The notes below the pieces were generated by a model that worked only from the letters and a program-made list of their open reading frames with translations, was not told where the DNA came from and did not search any database. A stretch of DNA of 64,000 nucleotides from Spirochaetota bacterium. Lineage in GTDB: Bacteria; Spirochaetota; Spirochaetia; Treponematales; UBA12059. The translations under genes and the position numbers were made by a program. The stretch is taken from positions 17,260 through 81,259 of the forward strand of contig JANNSO010000038.1 in NCBI GenBank assembly GCA_031402655.1. Reading direction: 5' to 3'. This document shows, piece after piece, positions 5,403-37,703 of this stretch; the stretch's first letter is position 1, and every line of letters begins with the position of its first letter.

Positions 5403-8400
5403 TTATCGTACCTTTCTGAAAATATCGGGACGAGAAGCTACAAGCTCATCCAATGATTCCAGGTAATGATACACGATATAATCTTGACCCATATCGAGTA
5501 TCGCATCGCGCTGTTGTGTGTCCTTATTCATTACCGATTCGCGGTCATGGGGAGTGCCGTCGCAAAATACATGAATGGGCACGCTGCCATGTATCGGCGC
5601 ATAGTAAAAATCGGGTACACAATATAATCCGGTTACTTTACGTTGAGCCTCGTCCGGCAATCGCAAACCATGGTCATACACGTAATCGAGAAACTTTCGC
5701 TCCGTTACGCTGTTTGTATCATAAGCATCAAGCAAGCGCTTGTATTGTTCTTCGTAAGTACCAGCATCTGCCACGCCTACTTCTACACGGGCAGAACGCA
5801 GGCGCTCCATGGCTCCTCTAATCAAATTGCGATCTATAATGGCATGGTCAGGCTGATTATAATAGCTTAACAGGTCATCGTAGCTTGCTTTATCCGTGTA
5901 AGTAGGGTCGTCGAACCTGCACAAACGCCATGCCTCATCGGCGACCATCTTCCAGGCGTCATTATCATCGACCAAACCGGCAAGGACTCCCAAACTGCCT
6001 TCTGCCGCTTCATACATTAAAAGATTCGGTTCGGCAGCCTCACCAATGGGAACAATTCCTAATTCGGCGCTTTCTATGCTGAAGACTCGTTCAACTGCAG
6101 TTTTCAAGGCGTATTGCAGTGTTGTACGTCCCGAAGCATCAAGTTCGAGTATTTTAAGCGGCTCAATATAGAGCGCATCAGCAGTATCGCTGGTGTATAA
6201 TTTCACGATTTTCAGGTCGTCCATCGTTACCGATTTTGATTGCAGTTTCCCTGTCGCGATACTCTCGCGATATCCATGGCTCTTCCAATGTCCTGATATC
6301 TTATTCAGTACAAAACCATCGGCTTTCTGGTTACGCCATTTTGAGTTTACGTATACCAGCTCGGCAGAAGGTATGAAGCGCAATCGAAGCAAAATATCCT
6401 CTCCCGACATAAGCCTGAGTTCTCGTATACGCGAAGGATCGCCGGTAAAACGGAAATATGTGTCTATTTGATAACCAAGGCGTGTCCGTTCCTCTTCTTC
6501 ACAGGTAATATGGGTCATCCGCTCGGCAATTCCGTCAGGCAAGCGCATAAGTCCGGCTATTTTACAGGTATGCGTATCCAGCTCTGCCCCAGTCCAAGGG
6601 TCGGTATTTCGCTGCTGGTCTGAGCCCAGAAGGATATACCCAGATCTTGAACAGACCGTAGCTTCTTCTCCATCATTAGCGATTTCCTGTAACTGAGCGC
6701 GAGTAACTTGATACTTAGCCCCATTATGGTAGATTAGATTTTCAGGTCCCATTTCACGGATTGCCAACACACGGTCACGGCTTAAAGCTTCCGCATCCTT
6801 ATCTAGCTGCAGGAACAAGCGAACTGGTAACCGGGTAAAATTATAACCGGGTAAAAAACCTTCGCTTGCAAGATAACGGTATGCATAGAACTCGGAGAAA
6901 CTTCCACCTCCAGCTTCATTCAATAGAAGTTTGCGCATCCTCAGGGCAAGGCTTGCATTACGGTATGCTTCCTTATGCTCGACACTGGTTGTCTGAATAA
7001 TCGGGTTATCTAAAACACGGTCTGCATCGTCCTTTTGCCTGGCTTGTTGATGGAACAAGTTTCTCCAGCGATCCATAGCGGAATCAAATGTACCCGGTAG
7101 ATTAATAAGCTGGCGTTCAGCCCAATCGGGGGTATACCAGGAGCACAAAGCAAGATCAGGTAGCAAATCATCTATTACAGCGAGCCATTTCTTGATTATG
7201 GATTCTGAATTTATGGAAGCCCTGGCTACATCGATTTTTGTTTCCGGCTTTAGCGGAATCAAGGGGTTCAGAATATCCAGCACGTCATCAAGCTTTCCGC
7301 TTAACCCAGCGATGCCGCGTTTCGAAAGATACAATGCATGGAAGTGGCTTCGCAATAATTCTTCATTAACCAGATCGAGGCGTGGTGCATGCACGGCACC
7401 GGATACCATATCATTATTGTTTTTGAAAAAATGAGTATCGTGAGCAGAACGCCTGCTGCAGCTAGTAAAGACAAGAGCTGGCTGGCCACTACGCCCTGCC
7501 CGCCCGGATCGTTGCGCATAGTTTGCAGCATTCGGTGGCACATTGCGCATATGAACGATACTCAGGTCGGCAATATCGATACCCAGTTCCATTGTCGGGG
7601 AGCAAAACAACGTTGATAATTTGCCGCTTCTAAAATCATCTTCCCGGCTCTGTCGTTCATTCTTGTCAACTTGCCCCGTATGTTCTTTAGCTTTTATACG
7701 CCCGGCAATGCTGGTTGAATTATATAAATCCCTAAAAAATTCGTTTGGGCTGCGTAGTGTATCTCGAACATTCCGCCTAAAAACTGGGTCGGCCGAAATT
7801 GTTCCATCCCCAAGCTTCCAAGTAATCTGGTCAGCTTTAAGCCGGTACGCCTTCTCCCCCGTAGCTTTAGGAATAGGCATACTCAATAGCCAGCCCGCAC
7901 TTTCCATGCGGTCAAGAAGCTTGCCAATAAAATCAATATAGGTAGGACCATCCATTTTGATGCCTTCTTTTGAAAGCATCTGTCGGATGTATTTCCCTAG
8001 TCGGCTTTGTTCTCCGATAGATTGCGAGAATCCAACATTTCGAGGTAGGTTTGCGCGTTTAAGCGTAAGCCAGTTTGGTTCCTGAATATCCTTTTCTTCT
8101 GGGACCCAATCAGGATGAAGGTTTTCCTTGAATTCCTCCAAATTTTTACGCAAGGCTCCTTCGCCAAAATATGAGGCGTGGCTAAAGGCATAAGATTTAC
8201 GAAAATATTCAAGCACCAAATGCACGAGAGTGGGGAAATCAAGTTCACTGCCTTTGCAAATATCGGGTAAGTCTCCCCATGCAGAATCGCCAATACGTTC
8301 ATCCCACTCATCATATGCAATAGTCAATAAACCGCACGCCTCAAGGCCAGGCATATTTATTCGCCATGAGTTTGATAGATCAGCGAGTACTAGGTACTTT

Positions 8401-10538
8401 ATTAGGCTTTGAAATATTTCTTTAAGCCGTCTTTGCGCAGTAACAAAACGAGGAGCATTTGGATTATCGGGGGTACGTGCAAAATCATCGTGCGACAATC
8501 CAATATTGTCGAATATTGCTTTGTCTATGTCTGAAAAGTTTATAACATGCTTCGTTTGTAAAGCCCGCACTAAAGCGGAACGCATGCGTACCGTAGAAAC
8601 AAAATCGTTAAAATGCCCAGACTGAAGAGATGCATCCTGCCTGTTATCGGTAAAACTCAAAACCTTGGTGTCTTTGGTGGAAAAACCGGCGCGCGGCATT
8701 GCATCGAGGATTCCAAGAGACAAAATAGTGGTAGCTGTTGAGCGGCCTTCGATTCCGATACGCGTAAGCTTAGTAAACTCGCTAGTTTGATGATGATATA
8801 AGTCACCGCTAGTCGGATCATAAATAAATTTTACAGGCACAAACCATCCAGAATATGGCAGATTGGTTCCTGAGCCATAGTTTCCCATGGCGTCATATGA
8901 AATAGGGGAAGGAAACTTGTGTGCGTACTCCTTTTTAATGGTCAGCACTCCCAACTGTTCCTTGGTAAACTCGCCAGGCAAATTCACCAGGTCCTCATCT
9001 CTATTCCATGAGTCTTTTCCTGGCAAGATGTACCCGCAGACAACCGAGTTCTCTTGTTCTTCATCCACGGATTCATCACTAAAATCGCGGGCTTCAATCG
9101 TTGAAACTAAAATATTTTTCCGTATGCATAAAAAAGGCTTACCTGACGAACGGCCAAAGACAACTGGGAACAGCGGATAGTTAAGCCCGTCTTTCTCCTT
9201 CGACGGAACTCCATCGAAACTCAAAAGGCGTTCGGGTGGTTCGTGGAGAGACACTGAAAGAGAAGCTGATTGAGCTATAAACTGATGTAGCTTAAATGGC
9301 AATACAAAAGGAACCCGCCCGCCACTCGTTTCGTTTGCCTGGGCAATCTGTTCGTTTATTCGGGATATGGCGCTAAAGATATCGCGCAACGCCTGCTGAC
9401 ACAGCTCGAAATTAGCGACCCCAGAATCTTCCGATAGCACTGCAGCTATGTTTTTCAAAGCAAGTGCTAAGCCTCGTCGAATTACTATCCCTTCCTGTTT
9501 TAGAGCGATCTTGCGCTCAACCCAACGAAACAGTGGCAGAGATAGTACTTGATCCATCGATAGATCAGTAGGCAAGGATATAGAAACCGCTTTGAAAAGT
9601 TCAGCCTTGCTTGGCAGTTCAGATTCAATCGAAATAGCTTTAAGGGATTCTTCGACTATCTGATCCTGGCTAAAAGGACTTCCAAAAAACCTTGATGCCA
9701 CCTTGGCGATCGTAGTTTTTCTTTCGGAAACGGTAGCCCCTCCTGCCATTGTGGCCGAAGTGCCCATGCATTGGATCTCTTTCTTGCATTCAGCCTTGAT
9801 TCGGCGAATAAGAACACCAACATCTGCACCTTGCCTACCCCGGAAGGTATGCAGTTCATCGAAGGCGATATACTTGAGATTATTAAAAATTGCATTCTTG
9901 AGTGAATCATCGCCGCCGCGCGTAAGCAACAATTCAAGCATCATATAATTGGTAAGTAAAAGATGCGGTGGATTCTGCCGTATCTCATCGCGCGTTTTTT
10001 CATCTTCCTGCCCGGTAAACTGGCACGCCCGGATCGGAAAGGCCTTCCCAGTTTTTGCATAGTACTTATCAGCATATTTTTTTATTTCGTTGGTCTGCGA
10101 ATTTATTAGGGCATTCATAGGATATACTATCAATCCGACTATCCCTGAGCTCTGGTTTTGAAGTACATCGTTAAAAATTGTGCCCAAAAAAGTTAGCGAC
10201 TTTCCGGAGCCAGTTCCAGAGGTTACAACAAAACCCTTTCCTTTGGACCCTAGGCGCAACGCTTCTTCCTGATGCTTGTGTAACTTATAGCCACTAAACA
10301 CGGCGGCCATATCCGCGTGAAGTACGCCTTCAGTCACCAAAGAATCGATACTTGCGCCTTCCTCATAGGATGGATTGAATTGAATAAGCGGATCCGGCCA
10401 CATAATCTTGTTCCGGCCTTCAATCGCAAGAGCTTCCTCGATCTGGGGATCATCAATATCCACAAAACTGCTGGCAAAAGCCTTATACTTGGTCATTATG
10501 TCTTCATGCAGACTGAAAATATCGATTATTTTGCTCAT
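5403..10538 (-). CDS. 1711-aa DEAD/DEAH-box helicase with DUF1998-like region and endonuclease-like C-terminal tail (DrmA-DrmB-like fusion; DruE-like is the alternative)
   Basis: Walker A VVTSGTGSGKSLTF (around 10205-10228), DExH box AFDELHTFRG (9843-9866), motif III GTSAT, motif VI YAQRSGRAGRSG (about 7492-7517). Downstream, the FLPGYNFTRLP and YEAAEGSLGVL stretches resemble YprA/MrfA-type DUF1998 modules. The last ~110 aa (CVPDFYY...IHVFCDGTPHD...QRDAILDMGQDYIVY) resemble a Vsr/DUF559-type nuclease fold. Confidence 0.8.
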   Translation of the reverse strand: MSKIIDIFSLHEDIMTKYKAFASSFVDIDDPQIEEALAIEGRNKIMWPDPLIQFNPSYEEGASIDSLVTEGVLHADMAAVFSGYKLHKHQEEALRLGSKGKGFVVTSGTGSGKSLTFLGTIFNDVLQNQSSGIVGLIVYPMNALINSQTNEIKKYADKYYAKTGKAFPIRACQFTGQEDEKTRDEIRQNPPHLLLTNYMMLELLLTRGGDDSLKNAIFNNLKYIAFDELHTFRGRQGADVGVLIRRIKAECKKEIQCMGTSATMAGGATVSERKTTIAKVASRFFGSPFSQDQIVEESLKAISIESELPSKAELFKAVSISLPTDLSMDQVLSLPLFRWVERKIALKQEGIVIRRGLALALKNIAAVLSEDSGVANFELCQQALRDIFSAISRINEQIAQANETSGGRVPFVLPFKLHQFIAQSASLSVSLHEPPERLLSFDGVPSKEKDGLNYPLFPVVFGRSSGKPFLCIRKNILVSTIEARDFSDESVDEEQENSVVCGYILPGKDSWNRDEDLVNLPGEFTKEQLGVLTIKKEYAHKFPSPISYDAMGNYGSGTNLPYSGWFVPVKFIYDPTSGDLYHHQTSEFTKLTRIGIEGRSTATTILSLGILDAMPRAGFSTKDTKVLSFTDNRQDASLQSGHFNDFVSTVRMRSALVRALQTKHVINFSDIDKAIFDNIGLSHDDFARTPDNPNAPRFVTAQRRLKEIFQSLIKYLVLADLSNSWRINMPGLEACGLLTIAYDEWDERIGDSAWGDLPDICKGSELDFPTLVHLVLEYFRKSYAFSHASYFGEGALRKNLEEFKENLHPDWVPEEKDIQEPNWLTLKRANLPRNVGFSQSIGEQSRLGKYIRQMLSKEGIKMDGPTYIDFIGKLLDRMESAGWLLSMPIPKATGEKAYRLKADQITWKLGDGTISADPVFRRNVRDTLRSPNEFFRDLYNSTSIAGRIKAKEHTGQVDKNERQSREDDFRSGKLSTLFCSPTMELGIDIADLSIVHMRNVPPNAANYAQRSGRAGRSGQPALVFTSCSRRSAHDTHFFKNNNDMVSGAVHAPRLDLVNEELLRSHFHALYLSKRGIAGLSGKLDDVLDILNPLIPLKPETKIDVARASINSESIIKKWLAVIDDLLPDLALCSWYTPDWAERQLINLPGTFDSAMDRWRNLFHQQARQKDDADRVLDNPIIQTTSVEHKEAYRNASLALRMRKLLLNEAGGGSFSEFYAYRYLASEGFLPGYNFTRLPVRLFLQLDKDAEALSRDRVLAIREMGPENLIYHNGAKYQVTRAQLQEIANDGEEATVCSRSGYILLGSDQQRNTDPWTGAELDTHTCKIAGLMRLPDGIAERMTHITCEEEERTRLGYQIDTYFRFTGDPSRIRELRLMSGEDILLRLRFIPSAELVYVNSKWRNQKADGFVLNKISGHWKSHGYRESIATGKLQSKSVTMDDLKIVKLYTSDTADALYIEPLKILELDASGRTTLQYALKTAVERVFSIESAELGIVPIGEAAEPNLLMYEAAEGSLGVLAGLVDDNDAWKMVADEAWRLCRFDDPTYTDKASYDDLLSYYNQPDHAIIDRNLIRGAMERLRSARVEVGVADAGTYEEQYKRLLDAYDTNSVTERKFLDYVYDHGLRLPDEAQRKVTGLYCVPDFYYAPIHGSVPIHVFCDGTPHDRESVMNKDTQQRDAILDMGQDYIVYHYLESLDELVASRPDIFRKVR

Positions 10539-12612: not shown

Positions 12613-13548
12613 ATGGAACTTGATTCCAAACGCAGTCACAGTGAAGAAGGATTAAATTCGGTCGTCGACCGTGCTCTTCTTGAAAACTGGATTACCAAGA
12701 CACCTGAAGGTAGCGCTCTCATGCCGGATGAAAAAGAACGCTTCATCAACACGGCCTTACTCTATCAGCTGAATCCATGGAAACGCGAAATTCATTGCAA
12801 AATCGATAACGCAAACCAGAGCCGGAAGCTTGTACTCGTAGTCGGCTATGAGGTGTATGTAAAGAAAGCGGAACGTACAGGTCTGCTTGATGGTTGGAAA
12901 GCATGGGTAGAAGGATCCGGCGACAATCTCAAAGGTGTTATAGAGATATACCGCAAGGATTGGTCTCATCCTTTTATTCATGAAGTCTACTGGGCAGAAG
13001 CAGTCCAGACTAATGAACGCGGGGAGCTCTTATTTTTCTGGCAAAAGATGCCCTGTTTCCAGCTCAGAAAAGTCGCTATCAGCCAAGGATTCAGACTAGC
13101 CTTCTCCGATGAAATCGGTGGGATTCCCTATGATGGATCAGAGCTTCCACTGTCTGAGAATATGCCTCCGCTTAAACAGGCAACCAATGAAGAGCGTGTC
13201 CAAAAGCCAGCCGCGACACCGTTAGCAAAAACAGAATCCGTGGATACCCTCGAAAACTTACAGGAGGGCATTCGGAAACTCACCTTGGATAACCAAGCCT
13301 TCCTAAAACCTACACATGTCTCATGGATTATCACTCAGCTAACAACGGAAAAGTCTGAGAAGCAACTTACAGGTCTTCATCAGCATGTAAAAAATGCAAT
13401 CGAGGAAGGCAAAGCTAATTCTATACCTCAGGTTAAGCCAAACGGTATTCGTCGCTTTCCCTCTAGGCGTCCACCAGATACTTCTAATGGCAACGTCCGC
13501 CATGAGCCGCTCAAAACCGCTGCTGGAGCTGAAGATCAAATATTCTAG
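12613..13548 (+). CDS. RecT/Bet-family single-strand annealing recombinase
   Basis: 311 aa. LNPWKREIH...VVGYEVYVKKAERTGLLDGW...FWQKMPCFQLRKVAISQGFRLAFSDEIGG matches the conserved W..MP..ML.K.A...ALR.AFP block of RecT/phage Bet proteins. Confidence 0.7.
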   Translation: MELDSKRSHSEEGLNSVVDRALLENWITKTPEGSALMPDEKERFINTALLYQLNPWKREIHCKIDNANQSRKLVLVVGYEVYVKKAERTGLLDGWKAWVEGSGDNLKGVIEIYRKDWSHPFIHEVYWAEAVQTNERGELLFFWQKMPCFQLRKVAISQGFRLAFSDEIGGIPYDGSELPLSENMPPLKQATNEERVQKPAATPLAKTESVDTLENLQEGIRKLTLDNQAFLKPTHVSWIITQLTTEKSEKQLTGLHQHVKNAIEEGKANSIPQVKPNGIRRFPSRRPPDTSNGNVRHEPLKTAAGAEDQIF

Positions 13549-13565: not shown

Positions 13566-14150
13566 ATGTTCGAACGTGCAAATACAAAGCAAAGCTCGCC
13601 GGATCTCGGCGAGCTTTTGTTTTCTCCTGAAAGCATTGATGTAACTACTAATGCCGAAGATTTTTCTATCACATCGATCGAGATGGCTACCTGGGCAGCT
13701 CGTAAAGTAATACAGGCGCGAACGCGCGTCGCGGAGCGAAAAACCTTGGCTGAGCGCTACAAGGCTCGCATCGACCAGTGGGTGAATGACGCCAACAAAG
13801 AAGATGATGACAGCACCGAATTTTTCATGAACCACCTAAAGCCCTTTGCAGAACGAGAAATCGGGAAACAGCGCCGCTCTCGCACACTTCACTTGCCCGG
13901 AGCAGAATTGTGTATGAGGAAGAAACCGGACCGCATAGAAATCCTCGATGAGCAGGAAGCCATTATCTACTGCGAGGAATATCTCCCGTCGGCGCTTATT
14001 ATAAAGAAAAGTCTCTCAAAGACCGTATTGAAGGCATCGATGCATTCAGGAGAACTTCCGCCCTCGGTATCCTTTATTCCAGGTGAAGATGAACTGTATG
14101 TGAATGCAGATGGCATAGGTCAGAACCTTGGAGCTCTCGATGCAGCGTAA
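13566..14150 (+). CDS. Mu Gam-like host-nuclease inhibitor family protein (tentative)
   Basis: 194 aa. An N-terminal coiled-coil-like segment (ATWAARKVIQARTRVAERKTLAERYKARIDQW) is followed by RSRTLHLPGAELCMRKKPDRIEILDEQEAIIYCEEY. This resembles the Gam-like pattern KS..L..G.v..R......v.d...... Confidence 0.5.
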   Translation: MFERANTKQSSPDLGELLFSPESIDVTTNAEDFSITSIEMATWAARKVIQARTRVAERKTLAERYKARIDQWVNDANKEDDDSTEFFMNHLKPFAEREIGKQRRSRTLHLPGAELCMRKKPDRIEILDEQEAIIYCEEYLPSALIIKKSLSKTVLKASMHSGELPPSVSFIPGEDELYVNADGIGQNLGALDAA

Positions 14151-18326: not shown

Positions 18327-18691
18327 GAAATTCACTCGGAAGCGCTTCCGCGATCATTCAAGTTTCCCCAGTATGGATGCATGCTATCCTTTGGGGAACC
18401 GTATCCGGAAGCAGCTCCCTTTTTCCAAGGAGAATTCAAATGCTCCTGAAAACCTGCTTTGATAAAAGCGCTTGCCGATGTACCCGAAGAGTATGTTCCA
18501 GGTGAATGGGAATACAGTTGCGGTCTACATCGATTCGGTACTGGTTTTTTTTCTATACATCCGGCTGTATTTTTTAAGATTTGGAGGGATTTGATGCGAC
18601 GACACTTTAGAACTGCTTTCCCAAAGCTGGTTTTTATTTTCTTTTTTGTTTTCTGGATACTCGCATCTACTTAAGGTGACGAAGTTTATTT

Positions 18692-19165
18692 TTCTACTTA
18701 TGGGCAGGCCTTGGGCTCAGGCCCTTCGACGCAGTAAGCAGCGCCACTAAAGCGGGAAGAAATGTATCCTTTTCGGGAGAGCAATCTTATATTAACATTT
18801 ACCTTCTTACCGAAAAAGGTGCCTACAAATACCAACCTGAGACTCAGGCTCTTAAGTTTATCAAAACGGGAGATTTACGAGCGCTTATTTCTCAGGCAAC
18901 TATCCCTAATGCAGCGACAATGCTTGTTTATACTGTGGACAATGCCTTGACTCCATCCTTTCTAAAATCGAATCCCGCAACATTCATGCTAATGTCACAT
19001 GCCACGGCTAGCTTCGCAGCGCAAAATTTATCCCTTGCGGCATCAGCGAGAAAGCTCGCATCCATAATTCAATATTCACTAAAGGCTCAAGGGGCAATCG
19101 ACACATAGGGACTAGCAAAGGAAGAAATCCCTTTATTTATCCAGCAGATTGGATTCACAGAATAA
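18692..19165 (+). pseudogene. 5'-truncated nitroreductase-like pseudogene (paralogue of 25420-26070)
   Basis: Aligns codon-for-codon, without indels, to the C-terminal 157 codons of the 216-aa gene at 25420-26070 on the opposite strand. The first ~58 codons are missing and there is an upstream in-frame TGA at 18677. An internal TAG replaces TTG 19 codons before the normal stop (...AIDT*GLAKEE...). Confidence 0.8.
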
Positions 19166-19228
19166 TCGACCTTGTGTCGGTATTAGTCAGGAAAAAGCAG
19201 AACCGCATTCAAAGGCAGAAAGCGGTCC
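18692..19228. repeat. Left arm of a 537-bp inverted repeat (partner 25357-25893)
   Basis: By hand alignment I count about 43 mismatches and no indels over the 474-nt coding part. Homology continues ~60 nt past the stop into the terminator stem. Confidence 0.8.
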
Positions 19229-19762: not shown

Positions 19763-21949
19763 TTGGAGGATCTAGTGCGCAGAAGCAGACTTGGAACAAA
19801 AATCGCTTTGTTGGTTGCGGCGGTTGTGCTTGCAGCCTTATCCATAACCATAGGTTTCATAGCCCTTACAATACAAACTTCGGCTCGAGAATCCGCGCTC
19901 AGCGAAGCACGTGGCTTAGCGACGACGCAAGCGGCGATTGCCTCGTCGGAATTCACTTTGGTACGAACCTCAATGACCGAGTTGGCGCGGATATTCAGCA
20001 TATATAAAAGCTTTCCCGATAGTCATACCATCAGGTTGATCGAGGAAATGCTCCGGGCGACGCTCGCGGATGAACCGCGGATTATTAACGCATGGGTAAT
20101 ACTGCTTCCGGGAATGATCGAGCAGGATTCCTATTTTCGTACTGGTTGGCACCGGATGGATGGCATGATAAGCAAGCAGGAAGCTTCAGCGGAAGAGCTC
20201 CCGCAAATATTCTCGGATGTACAGAAGACCGGGAAATCATGGATCGCCGAGCCTTATGAAATCAAGGAAATCTCAGGCGATATGGCAATGGGTTCCAGCT
20301 CGATGCAGCTTGCAAGCAGTATAGCGGTTCCCATCCTAGATGAAAGCGGGAAGACGGTCGGAATCGTAGGCGCGGATTTTACCCTTGCGTTTCTCCAGAA
20401 AAAGATCGGGACCGTCGCTGTGTTTGACAGCGGTTATGGAGAGCTTCTTACGAGTAAGGGAATGGTCACTACGTCTAATCAGCTGGATCGCATCGGTAAA
20501 ATCGCCCATGAAATCGAGGATGAGTCTAACGCATCGGTGCTTGCCGCGATAGGGGGCGGTAGCGGGTATGGGTTCGTCTCGAAGGCCGATCAGCATGGTG
20601 GTTCCGCCTTTAAATATCTCGCTCCGGTATCAACGGGAGAAGCCTCCGCGCTATGGAGTTTCCTGATCGTGGTTCCGTATTCTGAAGTCATGGTCGAGGT
20701 CTATCGGCTCGTCGGAATCATCGTGATCGTGGGAATTGTCGCCCTCGTCGCGATGGTACTGATCATAGCCTTCCTCGTTACGGCCTTGATACGTCCCCTC
20801 GACTCGATGGTTCAGGTTTTGAAGGAAATCGCGGATGGCCAAGGAGATTTGACAAAGAAAATCGAATCCCGCCGAAAGGACGAAATCGGTTTCCTGGCGC
20901 AGCATTTCAACCGTTTCAGCTCATCGCTCGCGGCTTCGATAGGCTTGATTGTCATGTCCGCAGAACGCCTGATCGGAACCGGTCGCGACCTCGAAAAAAA
21001 CATGGGTACCGTATTCTCCGCCATAACCGAGATCGCAGCGAACGCTCATAAGATGAAGGAAGGATCCGAAAGGCAGGCGAGCAGCGTGGCCCTGACTTCC
21101 GATGCCACCGGCCTGATCCTCGAAAGAATCGAGCGCCTCAAGCTTCTCGTGAAGGGACAATCCGCGAGCGTCCTGCAGTCTTCGGCATCAATAGAGGAAA
21201 TGATAGCGAATATCGTGTCGATGGCTACAAACGCGGAATCCGCCGGTGGCCATTACGCGAGCCTGGTCGGGGCCTCGGAAAAGGGCACGGACGTAATCGC
21301 GGACGTAAGCAGGCAAGTGAAGGAAATCGCCAACCAATCGGCTGCCTTAAGCGAAGCTAATGAAATAATTGCGGCGATTGCCTCGAAGACGAATCTCTTG
21401 GCGATGAATGCGGCCATCGAGGCCGCACATGCGGGAGATTATGGAAAGGGATTCGCGGTCGTTGCGGATGAGATTCGCAATCTCGCCGAGAGTTCCGCGA
21501 CCCAATCCATGGGCATCGGGAACAGTATCAAAGGCATTCAGTCATCCATTACCGCAGTCGTTTATTCTTCGTCAATAGCGGAAGATACGTTCTCTGATGT
21601 GCGAAGCCGGATAACGTTACTCTACTCCCTTCAGGATGAATTGAAGAGCGCGCTGCTCGAGCAGAAGCAAGGCTCGGCTTCGACCTTGGAGTCCCTTGCC
21701 TCAATACGCGATACGACCGCTGAAGTCGATTCGTCCGCAGGCGAGATGAGGGATGCCTGCGCGAAAGTTGCGAACGAAATGACCGCCCTCGTCGCTGCAA
21801 GCGTCGAGTTTAATCGCGGCGTAGAGGAAATCGCGCTTGGTGCATCGGAAATCGATCGGAGCCTCGCCACTACTGCGGACCTGACGCGCATGAACCGAGG
21901 GAATATCGACGAAGTCGTCCAAGTGACAAGGGCATTCAAGATTAAATGA
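19763..21949 (+). CDS. Methyl-accepting chemotaxis protein (Cache-type periplasmic sensor, HAMP, MCP signalling domain)
   Basis: There are two TM segments around a ~280-aa periplasmic region. HAMP motif: [23 protein letters not shown]. The signalling hairpin is highly conserved: [40 protein letters not shown]. The start may be GTG 19775 after GGAGGA rather than TTG 19763. Confidence 0.9.
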
Positions 21950-23238
21950 GCATTTTTAAAATAATCTCCCGTCATAGGGCCAGACTCGGGCGCAATGTCC
22001 TGATTGAGTTTTCATTACTCATGTTTTCGGTTATCCTGGTTACTTCGGCTACTCTCGGATATGTGCTTACGGGATTCGTGCGGGGACATGTCATACGTAT
22101 GCATGGCTCTTTCTATGCGCAAGGCCTGACGACTGTTTTCCCCCAATTCCTGGAAAGCGAAAACGAGGAGCAATTTAAGGCAATTGTCGCTCGTTTTGAA
22201 TTATCTGGTAGCTTGCCTCATGTCGAAGAACTGGCGATTTGGGATTCCACTGGAACCCAGGTCTTCGGCGACCTAGGCGAAAATAAGACAAAAGAGCTTG
22301 ATCTGATGGTTCGCGGCGCTTTAAACGGACTGATCCAGTACTCATACCAACGTGGGAATTTCCTGAATAGCGGCGTCGGAAACCATAAGGAATTATTTCT
22401 TTACCTGCCGATTACAGATGCCTTTTTCAAGGTGATAGGTATCGTCGGCTTAAGGGAATCCGATGACGCCTTGATCGATGACTTGTCTGCTGCCAGCGCG
22501 AAGATCGTCTTGTACGTCGTGCTCGCTGGGTTCCTTATATATGTAAGCCTATTCATATCATTTTACCATGCCTACAACCGCCAGCTCCTGATTAGCGAGC
22601 GGCTACAGAAGTCCCAGGATAGCATTATTTTTGCGATGTCCAGCCTCTCGAGCTTACGTGATCAGGAAACCGGCGGGCATCTGGAACGTTGTAGGGCCTA
22701 TGTAGGCTTGCTTGCTTCGAAACTCATAGGCGAACCCAAATATAAAGAATACGTCGATGATCAGTATATCCGGGATCTTGCGAGCATCGCCCCGCTGCAT
22801 GATATCGGAAAAGTGGGTATAGAGGATTCGATTCTGAGGAAGCCGGGAAAGTTGACCGATTGCGAATTTGATGTCATGAAGACGCACTCCGCGCTCGGTT
22901 CTGAAATATTGCAAAAAGCGCGTGAGCAGCTTCCGTTCAACTCGCAGCTTGAATTGGCGGTAGACTTGACTCGCCATCATCATGAACGCTGGGACGGCAA
23001 GGGATATCCTTCCGGTCTCGCCGGCGCTTCCATTCCACTGTCCGCGAGGATAATGGCGCTCGCCGACGTCTATGATGCGCTGAGATCCGAGCGTTACTAC
23101 AAGAAAGGGATGTCCCATATCGACGCGGTGAAGATTATCGAATCGGGCAGCGGAAGCCAGTTCGATCCGTTATTGGTTTCTGTATTCTTGAAGAATCATG
23201 TTGAATTTGAATCGATATTTATGGGTTTAGCCATTTGA
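21946..23238 (+). CDS. Membrane-anchored HD-GYP domain protein (c-di-GMP phosphodiesterase family)
   Basis: 430 aa. Two TM helices flank a ~150-aa external domain. HD-GYP signatures are LHDIGKVGI and [14 protein letters not shown]. The ATG overlaps the MCP stop (ATGA, 21946-21949). Confidence 0.85.
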
Positions 23239-23530: not shown

Positions 23531-24904
23531 ATGAACTCAAAATTTCTTTTAACCATCGCCTTGACGGCGGTTTTTTTTGCCGGTACGAACGCCAGTGCAC
23601 TCAGCGTCAAGCTCGACATCAAAGAAAGCTTGGTTGAATTGAGCCCTGGACTGAAAACCAAGGTCTGGTCCTACAATGGTTCGGTTCCCGGCACCCCCAT
23701 AATTTTAAACGTTGGCGATGAACTTACCCTCGAAGCAGTAAACCATTTGCCGGTGGCCACCAGCATCCACTGGCACGGAATGGAAGTGCCGAACGACCAG
23801 GATGGGACAATGGCTGCCATTGAACCTGGGAAGACGGTTATCTATCGCTTCAAAGTCACAACCCCGGGTACTTACTGGTTTCACAGTCACACCCGACCCG
23901 TCCTTGATCAGGTTGACATGGGTCTCTACGGAGCTTTTATCGTCAAGGCTCCGGAAGATTCCCAATATACCTCGGACCAAACGTTCCTCCTTGACGATTG
24001 GTTCCTCGGAGCCCGAGGCGAAAGGTTGAAGGGTACCGCCCGGGGTGGGATGGAACGTCTGGGTAACATCGAGACTGTCAATGGAAAGACGGGCGATGCC
24101 ATCCTTCCCTTGAACGTGAAACAGGGGGAGCTTCACAAGTTACGGTTTATCAATGCATCTACGGCGGCTGTTCATACCCTCAAACTGTCCCAAGGGAAAT
24201 TTCGGGTCACTCACACCGACGGACATCCCCTGACACAACCGTATTTTACTGACACATTGGTGATTCAGCCCGCCGAACGTTTTGACGTGGAATACTCGGC
24301 GACCGGAATACCCCGGAGCAAGCAAATGATTGAATCGGCAGACCGGGACCTCGGTCTTTCAATCCCCATTGTCTACGGCTCTGGCAGTCAGGTCCAGCAG
24401 GCTTCCCCGTATATCCCACCGGCCTCGAGAGCGTTTGCAGGGATCGGGGCAAAGAAGCCTGACTTTACCTTGGTTCTCAATTCACAGATGGCTATGACAA
24501 TGGCCAAGGACGACGGGATAGGAATGGGCGGAATGATGATGATGGACCACGGCTCGGGTACCATGCCCATGGAATGGACCATCAATGGAAAAACGTTCCC
24601 CAACGCCGATCCTTTGACCGCGAAGGTTGGCCAGATCATCAAGGTTAAGTTCGTGAACAACGACACCCAGATGATGCATAAGATGGATCACCCGATCCAT
24701 CTCCATGGCACCTACTTTCAAGTCGTCAGTATCAACGGAAAAGCACCCGAACGCGAAACATGGAAGGACACAATCTCAGTACCGGCTGGCGGCAGCGTTG
24801 AAATCGCCTTTCAGTTCAAGAACCCTGGGGACTGGATGCTTCATTGCCACATCCTGGATCACGAGGACAACGGAATGATGACGGCCGTAAAGGTGAAGGA
24901 ATAA
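23531..24904 (+). CDS. Multicopper oxidase (CopA/CueO-like, Met-rich insert)
   Basis: 457 aa with signal peptide MNSKFLLTIALTAVFFAGTNASA. Copper ligand motifs are SIHWHGMEV, YWFHSH, HPIHLHG and HCHILDHEDNGMM. The Met-rich segment is MAMTMAKDDGIGMGGMMMMDHGSGTMPME. Confidence 0.9.
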   Translation: MNSKFLLTIALTAVFFAGTNASALSVKLDIKESLVELSPGLKTKVWSYNGSVPGTPIILNVGDELTLEAVNHLPVATSIHWHGMEVPNDQDGTMAAIEPGKTVIYRFKVTTPGTYWFHSHTRPVLDQVDMGLYGAFIVKAPEDSQYTSDQTFLLDDWFLGARGERLKGTARGGMERLGNIETVNGKTGDAILPLNVKQGELHKLRFINASTAAVHTLKLSQGKFRVTHTDGHPLTQPYFTDTLVIQPAERFDVEYSATGIPRSKQMIESADRDLGLSIPIVYGSGSQVQQASPYIPPASRAFAGIGAKKPDFTLVLNSQMAMTMAKDDGIGMGGMMMMDHGSGTMPMEWTINGKTFPNADPLTAKVGQIIKVKFVNNDTQMMHKMDHPIHLHGTYFQVVSINGKAPERETWKDTISVPAGGSVEIAFQFKNPGDWMLHCHILDHEDNGMMTAVKVKE

Positions 24905-24945
24905 CGGAACAGGATGGAAACCTGTGTCCAGGCTAGATCAATAGC

Positions 24946-25117
24946 ATAATGGCGCTCGCCGACGTCTATGACGCGTTAAGGTCTGAGCGTTACTATAAAA
25001 AAGGAATGGACCATCGTGAGGCTGTGGAAATCATCGAAACCAGCAGCGGAAGTCAATTCGACCCTTTGCTGGTTTCTGTCTTCATCAAACATCATGGTGA
25101 CTTTGATTTTTTTTAAG
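24946..25117 (+). pseudogene. Orphan 3' fragment of an HD-GYP gene
   Basis: Reads [56 protein letters not shown]. This parallels residues ...[51 protein letters not shown]... of the intact gene at 21946-23238. There is no upstream coding sequence. Confidence 0.8.
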
Positions 25118-25180
25118 GAAAAACATTTTACATAGCATATCCAAGAATATTGTTATTTTTAATTCAGGTATAAATTATGG

Positions 25181-25284
25181 GACTCTCTAATAACCCTGTT
25201 GGTTATCAGGGATGCCTCTCTGATTCCTTACAGGAATCAGGTTTTTTAATGGTCGACCTCGCAAAACTGAAGTTTTTCGAGGTC
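25181..25284 (-). repeat. ~104-nt three-hairpin repeat element, copy A (partner 36450-36553, opposite orientation)
   Basis: Hairpins lie at 25255-25284 (GACCTCG...CGAGGTC), 25220-25240 (CTGATTCC...GGAATCAG) and 25187-25209. A 35-nt core (ACCATTAAAAAACCTGATTCCTGTAAGGAATCAGA on the minus strand) is identical to copy B. Confidence 0.75.
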
Positions 25285-25344
25285 CCCTTATAAAAAAAGC
25301 TGAGGGCAACATATTTTTGCCAAGAACGCTTGCGCCACTATTCA

Positions 25345-25395
25345 GTGAAAAAAAGAGGACCGCTTTCTACTTTTGAATGCGGTCCTGTTTTTTTC
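25345..25395. terminator. Bidirectional intrinsic terminator
   Basis: Stem GGACCGC (25357-63) pairs with GCGGTCC (25379-85). It is flanked by an A-run upstream and TGTTTTTTT downstream. It follows the minus-strand nitroreductase-like gene and closes the plus-strand MCO unit. Confidence 0.65.
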
Positions 25396-25893
25396 TGACT
25401 AATACCGGCATAAGGTCTATTATTCTGTGAATCCAATCTGCTGGATAAATAAAGGGACTTCGTCCTTTGCTAGTCCCAATGTGTCGATCGCCCCTTGGGC
25501 CTTTAGCGAATATTGAATTATGGATGCGAGATTTCTCGCTGATGCCGCAAGGGATATATTTTGCGCTGCGAATCCAGCCGTAGCGTGTGACATCAGCGTG
25601 AATGTAGCGGGATTCGCCTTTAGGAAGGACGGAGTCAAGGAATTGTCCACAGTATAAACGACCATTGCCGCTGCATTGGGGATAGCTGCCTGCGAAATTA
25701 GCGCTCGTAAATCGCCTGTTTTTATAAACTTGAGAGCCTGAATCTCAGGTTGGTATTTGTAAGCGCCTTTTTCGGTAAGAAGGTAGATGTTAATATAAGA
25801 TTGCTCTCCCGAAAAGGATATATTTCTTCCCGCTTTAGTGGCGCTGCTTACTGCGTCGACGGGCCTAAGCCCAAGACCCGCCCATAATATGAA
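25357..25893. repeat. Right arm of the 537-bp inverted repeat (partner 18692-19228)
   Basis: Covers the 3' two-thirds of the intact nitroreductase-like gene plus its terminator stem. See the left-arm entry. Confidence 0.8.
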
Positions 25894-26070
25894 GGACAAA
25901 TCGGGTGCGGGAATCTCCTTCTTTACAAAGGTTCTTGAAACACGGCGATCCTGAATTGCCTTGGCAAGGTCGATTCCTACGCTTCTTGCCGGTTTTTGCA
26001 ATGGTATGTCTTGTGTGAAGACGCTTGCTGCCGCGGAAACCGCGATTAAAATTGCCAGTAATCTTTTCAT
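25420..26070 (-). CDS. Secreted nitroreductase-family-like protein
   Basis: 216 aa with signal peptide MKRLLAILIAVSAAASVFTQ. RRVSRTFVKKEIPAPDLSFILWAGLG resembles the N-terminal R.S.R.F....l....l..iL.A motif of nitroreductase-fold proteins. The family call is tentative. Confidence 0.55.
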   Translation of the reverse strand: MKRLLAILIAVSAAASVFTQDIPLQKPARSVGIDLAKAIQDRRVSRTFVKKEIPAPDLSFILWAGLGLRPVDAVSSATKAGRNISFSGEQSYINIYLLTEKGAYKYQPEIQALKFIKTGDLRALISQAAIPNAAAMVVYTVDNSLTPSFLKANPATFTLMSHATAGFAAQNISLAASARNLASIIQYSLKAQGAIDTLGLAKDEVPLFIQQIGFTE

Positions 26071-26148: not shown

Positions 26149-26868
26149 TTATTTTAAGTTGACTGCCTTAATCAACTTGTCAACAAAGACCACTTTCCCC
26201 CTTTCATCTTTCTCCTCAAATTTCCTTGGAGTCCAACCTGAAACTTTAGCCGGGTCCAAGCCGGCCTGAACAAGTGGACCTAGATTTAATATCCAGACAA
26301 GATCATTACTGTTCATTGAGAGATCTTGAGCCCATTCGATCATATTGCCGTCGGCGAGCATTATGCCATAATGGTAGAGTTTTTTATGAAATCGGAAATT
26401 GTTGGGATAAATCCTGGCTATCTCCGCGAATGTAGCTTTGAGCGAATCCTTGGTATCCGAAGCAGTTTTTTTGTTTCCAAGCTCAAAATGAAGCATAAAC
26501 CTATCACCCTCAATTTCGTATTTGACGCCTTCTACCATCGGGAGCTTACTTGGGTCCAAGCCGGCAGCTAAAAATGGCTTAACATCAAAAGAGAACTCAG
26601 CATCCGGCTTATCCATATCCGGCATTCCTGACCCCCCGGCGTTACGGGAAAAATCAGAAGAAAAATAAACTTCGTCACCTTGCGTAGATGCGAGCATCCA
26701 GGCAGAGTCCTCCTCGACCCATGTTACATTGCTTCCCGAAGCGTCTGCGACGGCATTGAAGGATGCTTTTGCTTTTTCGGTTACTAAAGAACTCGAATTG
26801 CACCCGGAAAATAAAATTAAAATCGCCGTGAAAGCGATTCCTACCGCGAATACTTTTGGATTTCTCAT
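26149..26868 (-). CDS. Lipoprotein of unknown function
   Basis: 239 aa with lipobox LILFSGC. There is an internal duplication (PFLAAGLDPSKLPMVEG / PLVQAGLDPAKVSGWTP). Confidence 0.6.
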   Translation of the reverse strand: MRNPKVFAVGIAFTAILILFSGCNSSSLVTEKAKASFNAVADASGSNVTWVEEDSAWMLASTQGDEVYFSSDFSRNAGGSGMPDMDKPDAEFSFDVKPFLAAGLDPSKLPMVEGVKYEIEGDRFMLHFELGNKKTASDTKDSLKATFAEIARIYPNNFRFHKKLYHYGIMLADGNMIEWAQDLSMNSNDLVWILNLGPLVQAGLDPAKVSGWTPRKFEEKDERGKVVFVDKLIKAVNLK

Positions 26869-27410: not shown

Positions 27411-28631
27411 TTAAGCGATAAAAGGCAAAATCCTTGCCTCCACCGCCATGGCGGTTTCTTTAAGGCGGATATCATGGTCGGCATGGTCATAATGATCCGT
27501 CATGCTCTTGGTTAAGTGCCCAGTTGACTCCCTTAGGTTCTCGTCGGAAATCGTTCCGCGAAGCAAGGTATTATAGAGGTGGCGGAGTGAGTGAAAAGTA
27601 ATATTCCTGGCTTGCCTGGAACCCATAGGCACAGGACGTTTTGCTCCTGCATCCTTAATGCCTATTATACCTAGCTGAGCGTAAAATGCGGTTTCGATAG
27701 TCTTTCCATGGATGGGTACTGCTTCTTTTTCCGACCAGAATACCCAATCATTTTTATAGGGATTAAGCTTTTTCAGCTTGCAAATTGCCAGGTATAAAAC
27801 TTTGGGCAGGAATACGACTCGGGTCTTCCCGTTTTTTGTGCTTTTCAAGCCTTCTTTTTTACTATAGGAGCCTGATACCACGATGCGATCAGACTCGATC
27901 ATCGAATGGCGTAAACCGATAACCTCGCCAAGTCGAAGCCCGCATGCCAGCGAAATCATGGCAGCTATCTTGATACGGTCGTTATCCCACTTTGAGTTGA
28001 AGAGGCTCTTAATTTCCAGGCTGGTCAACAAGCCTTTAACTACGTTGTCCTTCTGTAGCTTAGGTACCCGCTGAATGGGGTTGTCGCGAATCATACCAAG
28101 GCGTAGCGCCTCGCTTAATGGCTTGCCTAGCGTGCAGAGAAGGGCATTACAGCTCGTGTTGCTCAATCCGGTTCACTGCTTAAAATCGAGAATAAACGAT
28201 TCGATAGCCCCGCTCGTCACTTTGGAAAGAAGGGTATCACCAAGCGCGCTGGCGATAAGGTATCGCTTAATATAAGAGTGATTGCTCATTACGTATTCTT
28301 TGCCAATAGAACGGCCTCGTAACCTGAGAGCCCGTATATATGAGGATTGCTCCCAGTCCCAAAACTGCAGGCAATAGTCGCCGAACTGGATCTCTTTTAC
28401 GCGCTTTTCCACCCCATACTTTTCTAGCCATGCCTGAGCGATAAGACGGGAATCGGGTTTCTTTGTCGCCGAGTACATTGCAGAATCAAGGCTCAGTAGT
28501 TCGCGCAGCCGCTCAACAGAACGCCCAGTCAAGTAAACGCGTCCCTCTGGGTCCCAGAATTGAACATAATAGGAAAACCGAGCATTTGTACTGGATCTTC
28601 GCTTGTATAGGGCATAGGGAAACCGCGCCAT
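27411..28631 (-). pseudogene. Tyrosine recombinase/integrase interrupted by one in-frame TGA (28173-28175)
   Basis: The track ORFs 28173..28670 (N-terminal arm/SAM-like part, likely start MARFPYALYKRR at 28631) and 27411..28166 (catalytic part) are in the same frame. Across the junction the sequence reads ...FILDFKQ*TGLSNTSCNAL.... Catalytic residues are present: GLRLGE (R), HSLRH (HxxR), GHLTKSMTDHYDH (H..Y). It is adjacent to the tRNA 3' end. Confidence 0.8.
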
Positions 28632-28748
28632 CGTGTGCTCCGAAAAAATCTGACATTTCGTCTGACACACACTGTTTAGACCGCAAGCACCATAAAATAC
28701 AAAAACCGCAATCCCTTATCTAGTAAGGAGTTGCGGTTCTCGTCTAAT

Positions 28749-28821
28749 TGGAGAATACCGGATTCGAACCGGTGACCTATTGATTGCGAACCAATCGCTC
28801 TACCAACTGAGCTAATTCCCC
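28749..28821 (-). tRNA. tRNA-Ala (anticodon CGC)
   Basis: The minus strand reads GGGGAAT TA GCTC AGTTGGTA GAGC G ATTGG TTCGCAA TCAAT AGGTC ACCGG TTCGAAT CCGGT ATTCTCC A. This folds as a 73-nt cloverleaf with the G3:U70 alanine identity pair and anticodon CGC. CCA is not encoded. Confidence 0.9.
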
Positions 28822-28963
28822 AAGGTTGGGCTTGACTATAATCGAGTGTAAAAAAATAATCAAGCATTTGACTCTTGGCTGTCGAATCTTGGCAAAAAAT
28901 ATTTCTGTGATACCTTACAAAGCAAAGGAAACCGTCAACGGTTCTTTTTTTGGAGGAACAGGC

Positions 28964-36246: not shown

Positions 36247-36449
36247 GACGCGAGTATACAGAATAGTAAATACTTGATGCAACACAAGAGCAAAAAAATA
36301 TGATGGTTTTCCTAGTCTATCCTGGGAAATTGTAGTACTCTTATAGAGAACCGAGAATTTTCTAATAGAGAGAAGGCGCCGTAGGTCTGCAATTATTTTT
36401 TTAAATTAATTTAATTCCATACCACGGGTAAATTTATCTCATACCAGGA

Positions 36450-36553
36450 GAGCTCTAAAAACTGCAGTTCTTAAGAGCTCAACCATTAAAAAACCTGATT
36501 CCTGTAAGGAATCAGAACGGAAGCTCTGATACCCAACAGGGTTATTGGAGCTT
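36450..36553 (+). repeat. ~104-nt three-hairpin repeat element, copy B
   Basis: Hairpins lie at 36450-36480 (GAGCTCT...AGAGCTC), 36495-36515 (CTGATTCC...GGAATCAG) and 36526-36548, the last enclosed by AAGCTC/GAGCTT (36521-26 / 36548-53). The element ends 28 nt before the ATG of the lipoprotein gene at 36582. Confidence 0.75.
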
Positions 36554-36581
36554 ACCGCAAATCTCAAACAGGAGGATTTAA

Positions 36582-37703
36582 ATGACTTTTGGAAGGATCA
36601 TGATTCTGGCCGGGGCTTTGCTTATGCTTGCATCCGCATGTGTATCAAAACCCCCGGTAAAACCCGATACAAGTGCTCCAGTGGTCGTTACCGATCCGGC
36701 GCCGCCTACAAGTCCGACTAGCGTTGTACCGGCATCTATCAGCAAGGCAGATTTAACGGTTTTACACGATAGAGTTTTGGGTTTGAGAAAACAAGCCTTC
36801 GATCTGGGTGCAAAAGAACTTGCGGCGGAAGAGTTTAACTCAGCCGACACGCATTATATAGAAGGAAAAACCGCATTTGATGCCGATAAAATCGATTCGG
36901 CAAAAATCTCCTTCGAAACGGCGGAACCTTTATTTAAGGTTCTTATAGCCAAAACCCAGAAACTTGTGGCAGAAAATAGGCGCACCGATGCCGATTCAGC
37001 CCGCCTGCGGGCAGAGAATTCCGGTGCTCCCGAGTTTTCTGCAGACGTTTTGGCCCTGGCGGATCAAGCGTACGCGGATGGCCTGAAAGCCTACTCAGCC
37101 GGAGATAACCAACAGGCTGCCGAAGCCTTCGCTCGTGCGCTAGCCCTGTTTGACGGCGCGGAAAAACGCGCTCGTGCAGTGCTTTCAAAAAACCGTATCG
37201 ATGAGCTTGGATACGCCTCATATGATACTGGCAATTACCAGATCGCCGGCGAAAAGCTTGCAAGTGCGGACGAAAAATTTGCCACAGATCCTTTAGCTGC
37301 CGTAGACTTGACTGAAGAGGCACTGCTTCGCTTCAACCTGGTACTTTCCAAAGGCTGGGAATTGTCCGCTGGAGACAATAAGGTTAAAGCCGCCGGATTC
37401 AAGACGAAGTCGGACGAAATAAAGGCTTCCGTTGCGGTCAAGAATGACTATGTGCAAGCCCAGCTTGTTTGGGACGCAGCCGGAGAAGCATTTGAAAAAT
37501 CCGAGTTTGAATACTCATTTGAACTTTTCGCAAAAGCTGAGGCTTTATTTTCCGATGTTTATACCCTCGCCGCGGCAAAGCGAGCCAATGCCCAGGCCGC
37601 CATGACGGCAGCCGCAGCCAAACGGGAACAAAGCACCGGTCTCATTACCCAGGGGCAAAACACCCTGGATAATCCGGATGCAAACAAGAAAGCGGGAGAG
37701 TAA
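36582..37703 (+). CDS. Lipoprotein with tandem helical (DUF4398-like) repeats
   Basis: RBS AGGAGG lies upstream and the lipobox is LMLASAC. There are four to five ~60-aa Ala/Glu-rich repeats ending in ...A(E/L)ALF. Confidence 0.65.
   Translation: MTFGRIMILAGALLMLASACVSKPPVKPDTSAPVVVTDPAPPTSPTSVVPASISKADLTVLHDRVLGLRKQAFDLGAKELAAEEFNSADTHYIEGKTAFDADKIDSAKISFETAEPLFKVLIAKTQKLVAENRRTDADSARLRAENSGAPEFSADVLALADQAYADGLKAYSAGDNQQAAEAFARALALFDGAEKRARAVLSKNRIDELGYASYDTGNYQIAGEKLASADEKFATDPLAAVDLTEEALLRFNLVLSKGWELSAGDNKVKAAGFKTKSDEIKASVAVKNDYVQAQLVWDAAGEAFEKSEFEYSFELFAKAEALFSDVYTLAAAKRANAQAAMTAAAAKREQSTGLITQGQNTLDNPDANKKAGE

Follow-up and report, generated by a model that had tools for sequence, protein, structure and literature searches.

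The window (the whole 64,000-nt stretch of DNA analysed here) begins with a low-GC island, positions 1-28822, that has 42-53% GC, compared with 53-60% to its right. At the end of the island a tyrosine integrase gene (27411-28166, minus strand) adjoins a tRNA-Ala(CGC) gene (28748-28822, minus strand), and the island also carries genes for a SNF2/helicase protein (2520-5396), RecT (12613-13548) and a Mu Gam-like protein (13566-14150) as well as an ORF of 1711 aa (5403-10538). The island has the appearance of an integrative or prophage-like element, with the tRNA as its site of insertion. Within it, an HD-GYP-type gene (21946-23238) is followed by a multicopper-oxidase gene on the plus strand (23531-24904). 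The 3' end of the HD-GYP-type gene is repeated with 79% identity (23047-23210 / 24943-25106) beyond the multicopper-oxidase gene, as a 55-aa ORF (24949-25116) that is a gene remnant or decayed paralog. Just to the right of this ORF lies copy A, one of the two repeats with which this study is concerned. Between copy A and a nitroreductase gene we noted a GC-rich hairpin at 25352-25395 (GAGGACCGC...GCGGTCCTG) bordered by an A-run and, at its other side, a T-run; it resembles a terminator for both directions and was not reported by the consensus scanner. An inverted duplication of 544 nt, 90% complementary (18685-19228 / 25357-25900), covers most of the nitroreductase gene, and a second inverted pair of 49 nt is found nearby (18653-18701 / 26653-26701). 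These inverted pairs indicate segmental rearrangement within the island. The other repeat, copy B, lies to the right of the island and ends 25 nt before the start codon of a lipoprotein-like gene (36582-37703). The features of the two copies are as follows.

25175..25178, no strand: first half of the copy A target-site duplication, TTAT on the plus strand
25179..25287, minus strand: copy A of the putative MITE, 109 nt, in the same sense as copy B; 126 bits with the covariance model; boundaries from the family's terminal repeats and the flanks
25180..25216, minus strand: copy A hairpin 3, the internal repeat paired with the right terminal repeat (25179-25194)
25219..25247, plus strand: copy A hairpin 2 and T-run, resembling an intrinsic terminator that reads on the plus strand; from the terminator scan
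25255..25284, minus strand: copy A hairpin 1, most of the left terminal repeat (25272-25287) and its internal inverted copy, loop TTCA
25288..25291, no strand: second half of the copy A target-site duplication, TTAT on the plus strand
36447..36556, plus strand: copy B of the putative MITE, 110 nt; 117 bits with the covariance model; boundaries from the family
36450..36480, plus strand: copy B hairpin 1
36488..36516, minus strand: copy B hairpin 2 and T-run, terminator-like and antisense to the lipoprotein gene; from the terminator scan
36519..36556, plus strand: copy B hairpin 3, including the right terminal repeat

The original prediction had described the two repeats as one family with three hairpins. 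We reproduced the alignment on which it was based, that of the reverse complement of 25181-25284 with 36450-36553. With up to three mismatches allowed, the window contains the 35-nt core just twice, while none was expected from 100 shuffles. As had been stated, the differences in stem 1 are compensatory (GACCTCG/CGAGGTC in copy A, GAGCTCT/AGAGCTC in copy B), hairpin 2 is the same in both copies and hairpin 3 is kept in both. Over their full lengths of 109-110 nt, copies A and B represent one three-hairpin element and are 83% identical overall, with compensatory changes in the stems. A repeat finder independently paired 25185-25260 with 36475-36550 as arms that are 88% complementary over 76 nt. 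An exhaustive, filter-free search with a covariance model found no third copy in the window.

In order to find further members of the family, we scanned genomes and metagenomes with patterns. The genome scan covered one genome per species and used hairpin 2 as the pattern, with its loop left free. Nine loci were obtained, and the five with the whole three-hairpin element were all in the Treponemataceae MAG GCA_964485395.1. The other four (two in Anoxynatronum, one each in Armatimonadota and Caldisericota) had the short hairpin only and were rejected as unrelated. For the metagenome scan the pattern consisted of the hairpin-1 apex and the linker, with all three stems left free, and 52 loci were returned. 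A covariance model was built from six copies; a search with such a model had been suggested in the original prediction. With pattern scans and model combined, ~40 real copies were recognised in all, 5 in the related MAG and ~35 in metagenome contigs, some of which carry two or three copies. Several of the metagenomes are presumably termite-gut samples, which is our impression. No match to the element was obtained by blastn in phage and plasmid collections, and carriage by phage or plasmid was rejected, the one viral pattern match being due to chance.

The family comprises several subfamilies with quite different stem sequences. The hairpin-1 apex and the A-run were part of the metagenome pattern, so their conservation across subfamilies derives in part from the search. 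The element is 108-146 nt long across the family, and the window copies are too short for any ORF of at least 50 aa. We also noted several unusual arrangements, given here with the L numbers of their loci. The 2.3-kb metagenome contig L037 has three copies (732-855, 2041-2142 and 2156-2260), two of which are members of another subfamily, arranged almost head to tail with 13 nt between them. A shorter variant at L046 (4909-4993) has hairpin 1, linker and hairpin 2 only, ends in ...CTGCTC and has AATT on both flanks; it may be a transposition-competent deletion derivative. At L041 (5445-5573; identical in L059) a 129-nt variant, which comes from other metagenomes, has a fourth hairpin, GGCTTGGCT-CAA-GCCAAGCC, between hairpins 2 and 3, and L020, L014, L057 and L060 have small insertions at the same position.

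Comparison of the copies defined the ends of the element. In the largest subfamily the element starts with GAGGCTCTTGCAAAAC and ends with GTTTTGCAAGAGGCTC, which together form a terminal inverted repeat. In the J and K types 9-10 of the 11 outer bases match and the repeats continue into AAAAC, while the terminal repeats of the window type are imperfect, with 7-8 of the 11 outer bases matching. The left end of each subfamily fits its own right end better than the ends of other subfamilies. We then applied a uniform rule for the boundaries, placing the left one 18 nt upstream of the hairpin-1 apex and the right one where the reverse complement of the first 7 nt was best matched. Under this rule, identical 4-nt flanks were found in 15 of 25 copies; random pairing of flanks gave 1.1 on average and at most 7 in 20,000 trials. 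When either boundary was shifted by 1-3 nt only 0-4 flanks matched, and 5-mers never matched. The duplicated 4-mers (TAAT, TTAA, ATAA, AAAT, TACC, AGCC and others) vary from copy to copy, which marks them as target-site duplications rather than a fixed attachment core. The automatic rule placed the right boundary of copy A 1 nt off. The duplication of this copy, as read in the sequence, is perfect, ATAA/ATAA in the orientation of the element. Copy B has ACCA and GCAA as flanks and thereby no intact duplication, as is also the case for several of the MAG copies. The hexamer ATCTCA flanks copy B at 36434-36439, 7 nt to the left of its boundary, and at 36561-36566, 4 nt to the right; this pair may be chance or the trace of a more complex insertion history.

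Small size, lack of coding capacity, terminal inverted repeats, a target-site duplication and multiple dispersed, mostly intergenic copies in either orientation are among the features by which a MITE is recognised, and these were found here. We believe that the two repeats are very probably copies of a non-autonomous transposable element of this kind belonging to the Treponemataceae. Prokaryotic MITEs range in size from 50 to 800 bp, and a 2024 census counted on average ~145 MITEs per genome in a cluster of Spirochaetes that includes Treponema (PMC11602168). Among the identities offered in the original prediction, that of a MITE-like mobile element is strongly supported by the terminal inverted repeats, the 4-bp duplications, the ~40 dispersed copies in either orientation and the absence of the element from orthologous sites.

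The hairpins themselves might suggest a different way of moving, namely that of a REP/BIME-like or IS200/IS605-like element mobilised as single-stranded hairpins by a tyrosine (HUH) transposase. Each end of the present element is a near-perfect hairpin whose arms covary and whose apex is conserved, and HUH transposases such as those of the IS608 and RAYT systems recognise their substrates as hairpins with such features. However, HUH systems are not known to duplicate their target sites or to possess terminal inverted repeats, while here the terminal inverted repeats are clear and a variable 4-bp duplication flanks 15 of 25 copies. We consider movement by such an enzyme to be scarcely credible.

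The locations of the copies were also compared. Twenty-seven of the 34 copies are clear of any ORF of at least 130 aa, and the genes on either side of a copy may be divergent, convergent or tandem. The gene downstream shares the strand of the element in 14 cases and is on the opposite strand in 11, so that orientation is unbiased. The interior of the element forms the end of six short-read contigs (L022, L044, L053, L062, L063 and L072). L062 and L063 carry the gene that adjoins copy B, and L072 ends at the position matching window 25248, within copy A. L072 is the sole contig with the oxidase, and a look-up of the nitroreductase protein gave no record; no strain-level empty site for copy A was found. 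For copy B, orthologs of the lipoprotein-like gene are 67% identical in the related MAG (L064) and 46% identical in L066, and the neighbours TSCPD, a 231-aa gene, peptidase M18, MerR and GTPase are shared with both. The syntenic site upstream of the lipoprotein ortholog is without the element in both L064 and L066, the intergenic DNA around copy B being too diverged from that of the nearest relative for a clean, base-precise alignment of the empty site.

Copy A is 93-94% identical to L008, from another species (the related MAG), and to L032, from a metagenome contig, and the duplications of these three copies are perfect. Since copy A is only 83% identical to copy B, it is most likely a member of a recently active sublineage present in more than one species and probably a recent insertion in the integrase-bearing island, whereas copy B looks like an older insertion.

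The architecture of the hairpins explains why their stems covary. In hairpin 1 the left terminal repeat pairs with a copy of itself that lies inverted further inside the element. The right terminal repeat forms one arm of hairpin 3, opposite an internal copy, and hairpin 2 is a separate internal hairpin. Because stems 1 and 3 are built from the terminal repeats and their internal inverted copies they covary, and all four arms change together between subfamilies. This concerted change is the set of compensatory substitutions seen in the original prediction. In a model-based alignment of 30 copies, which was fitted to the model structure and so favours pairing, standard pairs were found in 97.1% of cells, compared with 36-48% in a control with slid partners. 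Changes on both sides were found in 29 of 37 pairs among the 30 copies. Helix 1 was paired in 98% of cells across these copies, and 7 of the 9 pairs of helix 2 had changed on both sides. The apex AAAAC-TTCA-GTTTT and the AACCA motifs are fixed while the arms vary between subfamilies. The covariation had originally been read as selection on structure. The pairing and the two-sided changes bear this inference out up to a point, but for hairpins 1 and 3, consisting of terminal repeats and their internal copies, the covariation is no pointer to an RNA function.

Three covarying hairpins could also be expected of a multi-copy family of structured small RNAs or of cis-regulatory 5' leader RNAs. Copy B, L004 and L008 are located just upstream of genes on the same strand, and the products of the genes downstream of copy B and L004 have signal peptides. 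On the top strand G:U slightly outnumbers A:C (22 cells in 12 columns versus 9 cells in 7 columns), and the top-strand fold is more stable by ~2.3 kcal/mol in 22 of 29 copies by comparison of minimum free energies; in neither count can the copies be taken as independent, and on the strand that was modelled G:U pairs are favoured by the model. The G:U excess can be accounted for by a few inherited variants together with an alignment fitted to the top strand. Watson-Crick pairs occupy 95% of paired cells, which is what DNA palindromes would give. Furthermore, the 4-bp duplications and terminal repeats show that the element was inserted by transposition, and copies lie in either orientation, some of them between convergent genes or after genes. 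A search against Rfam 15 returned nothing on the element at the gathering threshold for the window or at E<=1 for L008 and L039, and the ortholog of the gene downstream of copy B is without such a leader. Mixed orientation and orthologs without the element also led us to reject a dedicated 5' leader element. We regard an RNA family as very improbable, and the small RNA gene of the original prediction found no support, with no Rfam match even at E<=1, unbiased orientation and hairpins that are 95% Watson-Crick paired on both strands. Nothing in the structure of the family demands an RNA function.

Hairpin 2 has properties of its own. On the bottom strand it is followed directly by 5-7 T in every subfamily; the A/T-run was partly required by the search pattern, while a hairpin next to it was not demanded. 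The hairpin and T-run are kept across at least five unrelated types of hairpin-2 sequence (CUGAUUCC..., GCAGUUUCUCGCCC..., GCGACGUUUCAAAGCCCG..., GCAUUUUUUCGGGC... and GUAGUUUUUCGGC...). Its stability is approximately -8 to -17 kcal/mol across subfamilies, with one short remnant at -6. Both window copies have a 10-pair stem and then TTTTTT, and the consensus scan called both terminator-like (25219-25241 on the plus strand and 36516-36494 on the minus strand), in agreement with the earlier reading of this strand. A GC-containing hairpin directly 5' of a U-tract is the hallmark of an intrinsic terminator, and by this match to the consensus hairpin 2 with its T-run is a predicted one. In copy A the terminator-like site is downstream of the plus-strand multicopper-oxidase gene and the HD-domain gene remnant, and it is predicted to be oriented so as to stop plus-strand transcripts from the multicopper-oxidase gene. 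In copy B, by its orientation, there is no terminator on the strand of the lipoprotein gene, and this copy would put three stable hairpins into the leader of that gene if the promoter is upstream.

These properties raise the question of whether a MITE by origin has been kept by selection on the host, hairpin 2 and its U-tract terminating one strand while the hairpins stabilise or insulate mRNAs on the other. The retention of the hairpin-2/T-run unit with at least five different, covarying stem sequences would fit this, as would L002 and L006, in terminator orientation between tandem genes, and copy A, downstream of a plus-strand gene. On the other hand, orientation with respect to genes is unbiased, and copy B and several others are antisense to any gene. 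L006 and copy A adjoin separate terminator-like hairpins belonging to neighbouring genes, and the T-run was in part selected by the search pattern. Inheritance from a parent IS explains the same facts without selection on the host. We consider maintenance by the host unlikely, and believe that hairpin 2 was probably the terminator of the parent IS, retained when the transposase gene was lost; it may still affect host transcripts. The portable terminator module of the original prediction thus survives as a plausible side property, found in the form of a hairpin-2/T-run in every subfamily, though this property may simply have come with the parent IS.

For the MITE we propose the following mechanism. 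The mobile unit would be an element of ~110-125 nt that codes for nothing and is bounded by terminal inverted repeats of ~11-16 bp. According to established transposon biology, terminal inverted repeats combined with a 4-bp duplication suggest a DDE-type transposase that acts in trans, and such an enzyme, encoded elsewhere in the genome, would move the element. It would cut its target with a 4-bp stagger, giving rise to the 4-bp direct duplication of AT-rich intergenic DNA. Each end would present a near-perfect hairpin formed by the terminal repeat and its internal inverted copy (hairpins 1 and 3). Between the ends would lie the GC-containing hairpin 2 beside 5-7 A on one strand (T on the other), and on the T-run strand this hairpin would act as a Rho-independent terminator, probably derived from the 3' end of the parent IS. 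Among the families of the ISfinder classification, the 'GA/GG' tips and the 4-bp duplication may best fit the IS5 family.

We searched the window and ~430 kb of related loci for the parent. No autonomous IS with matching terminal repeats was found there, and neither were lone terminal repeats or IS-sized inverted repeats with 4-bp duplications. Among the ORFs of the window and island tested against Pfam there was no DDE transposase, and no transposase of any type was identified. L036 and L038 were followed as leads to a parent IS and rejected, as they share only hairpin 1 and the linker and are truncated remnants beside host genes.

Some of the observations could be taken to go beyond a conventional MITE. 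The concerted change of four arms, the fixed apex and AACCA and the pairing of each terminal repeat with an internal copy might point to a transposase that reads hairpin or cruciform ends and yet cuts with a 4-bp stagger, a combination that is not known to have been described. Near-identical copies with perfect duplications in genomes whose orthologs are only 67% identical might instead point to a horizontally spreading terminator or leader-RNA module recruited by the host. Even taken together, these two possibilities appear improbable to us.

The element can be compared with several known systems. It is like other prokaryotic MITEs, including those of the Spirochaetes Leptospira, Sediminispirochaeta and Treponema (PMC11602168), in being small and non-coding, with inverted repeats and a short duplication, and also in having many dispersed, mostly intergenic copies and presumably relying on a transposase encoded elsewhere. 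Compared with MITEs generally, it is unusual in that the terminal repeat is one half of a subterminal hairpin and in having an internal terminator-like hairpin.

The Correia elements of Neisseria, the RUP elements of Streptococcus pneumoniae and ERIC are MITEs of ~100-150 nt that adopt stable RNA or DNA structures on transcription, and effects on the transcription termination, mRNA processing or mRNA stability of their neighbours are known or have been proposed. Correia and RUP duplicate TA, and all three kinds fold end to end into one long hairpin. In contrast, the present element has a variable 4-bp duplication and a separate hairpin at each end, and there is no sequence similarity. REP/BIME sequences are likewise intergenic, multi-copy, palindromic units with linkers, sometimes serving as terminators or mRNA stabilisers. 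However, REPs are not known to have terminal inverted repeats spanning the unit or a target-site duplication, and the present element has both.

The IS6/IS26 family has a 14-bp repeat, GGTTCTGTTGCAAA, with terminal GG and an invariant G at position 7, and makes an 8-bp duplication (PMC6807381, PMC7986276). The repeat of the J subfamily contains GGCTCTTGCAAAA, which resembles the consensus, but it is without the G at position 7 and has an extra GA before the GG, and the repeat of the window subfamily (GGGGACCTCG...) shows no resemblance. We have treated the similarity of the J type as a coincidence or a very distant relationship and not as membership. An IS6/IS26-derived MITE was rejected because the duplication is 4 bp and not 8, G7 is absent, the GG does not stand at the terminus and the sequence of the window subfamily is unrelated.

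MITEs are a well-known class, and nothing about this element is unexpected for them. Features worth noting are the subterminal hairpins with concerted change of four arms, the embedded putative terminator and the near-identical copies across species. The last of these, copies that by their sequences appear active in different species, would point to recent horizontal spread. For annotation, a repeat at which short-read assemblies of Treponemataceae genomes break up now has a name and a model, and this guards against taking the element for a riboswitch or small RNA owing to its strong covariation. Compensatory changes in stems do not by themselves show an RNA function, as palindromic transposon ends give the same signal. 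The element brings a predicted one-way terminator and three stable hairpins into intergenic regions, and it may thereby alter the expression of neighbouring genes, as for example 25 nt upstream of the lipoprotein gene.
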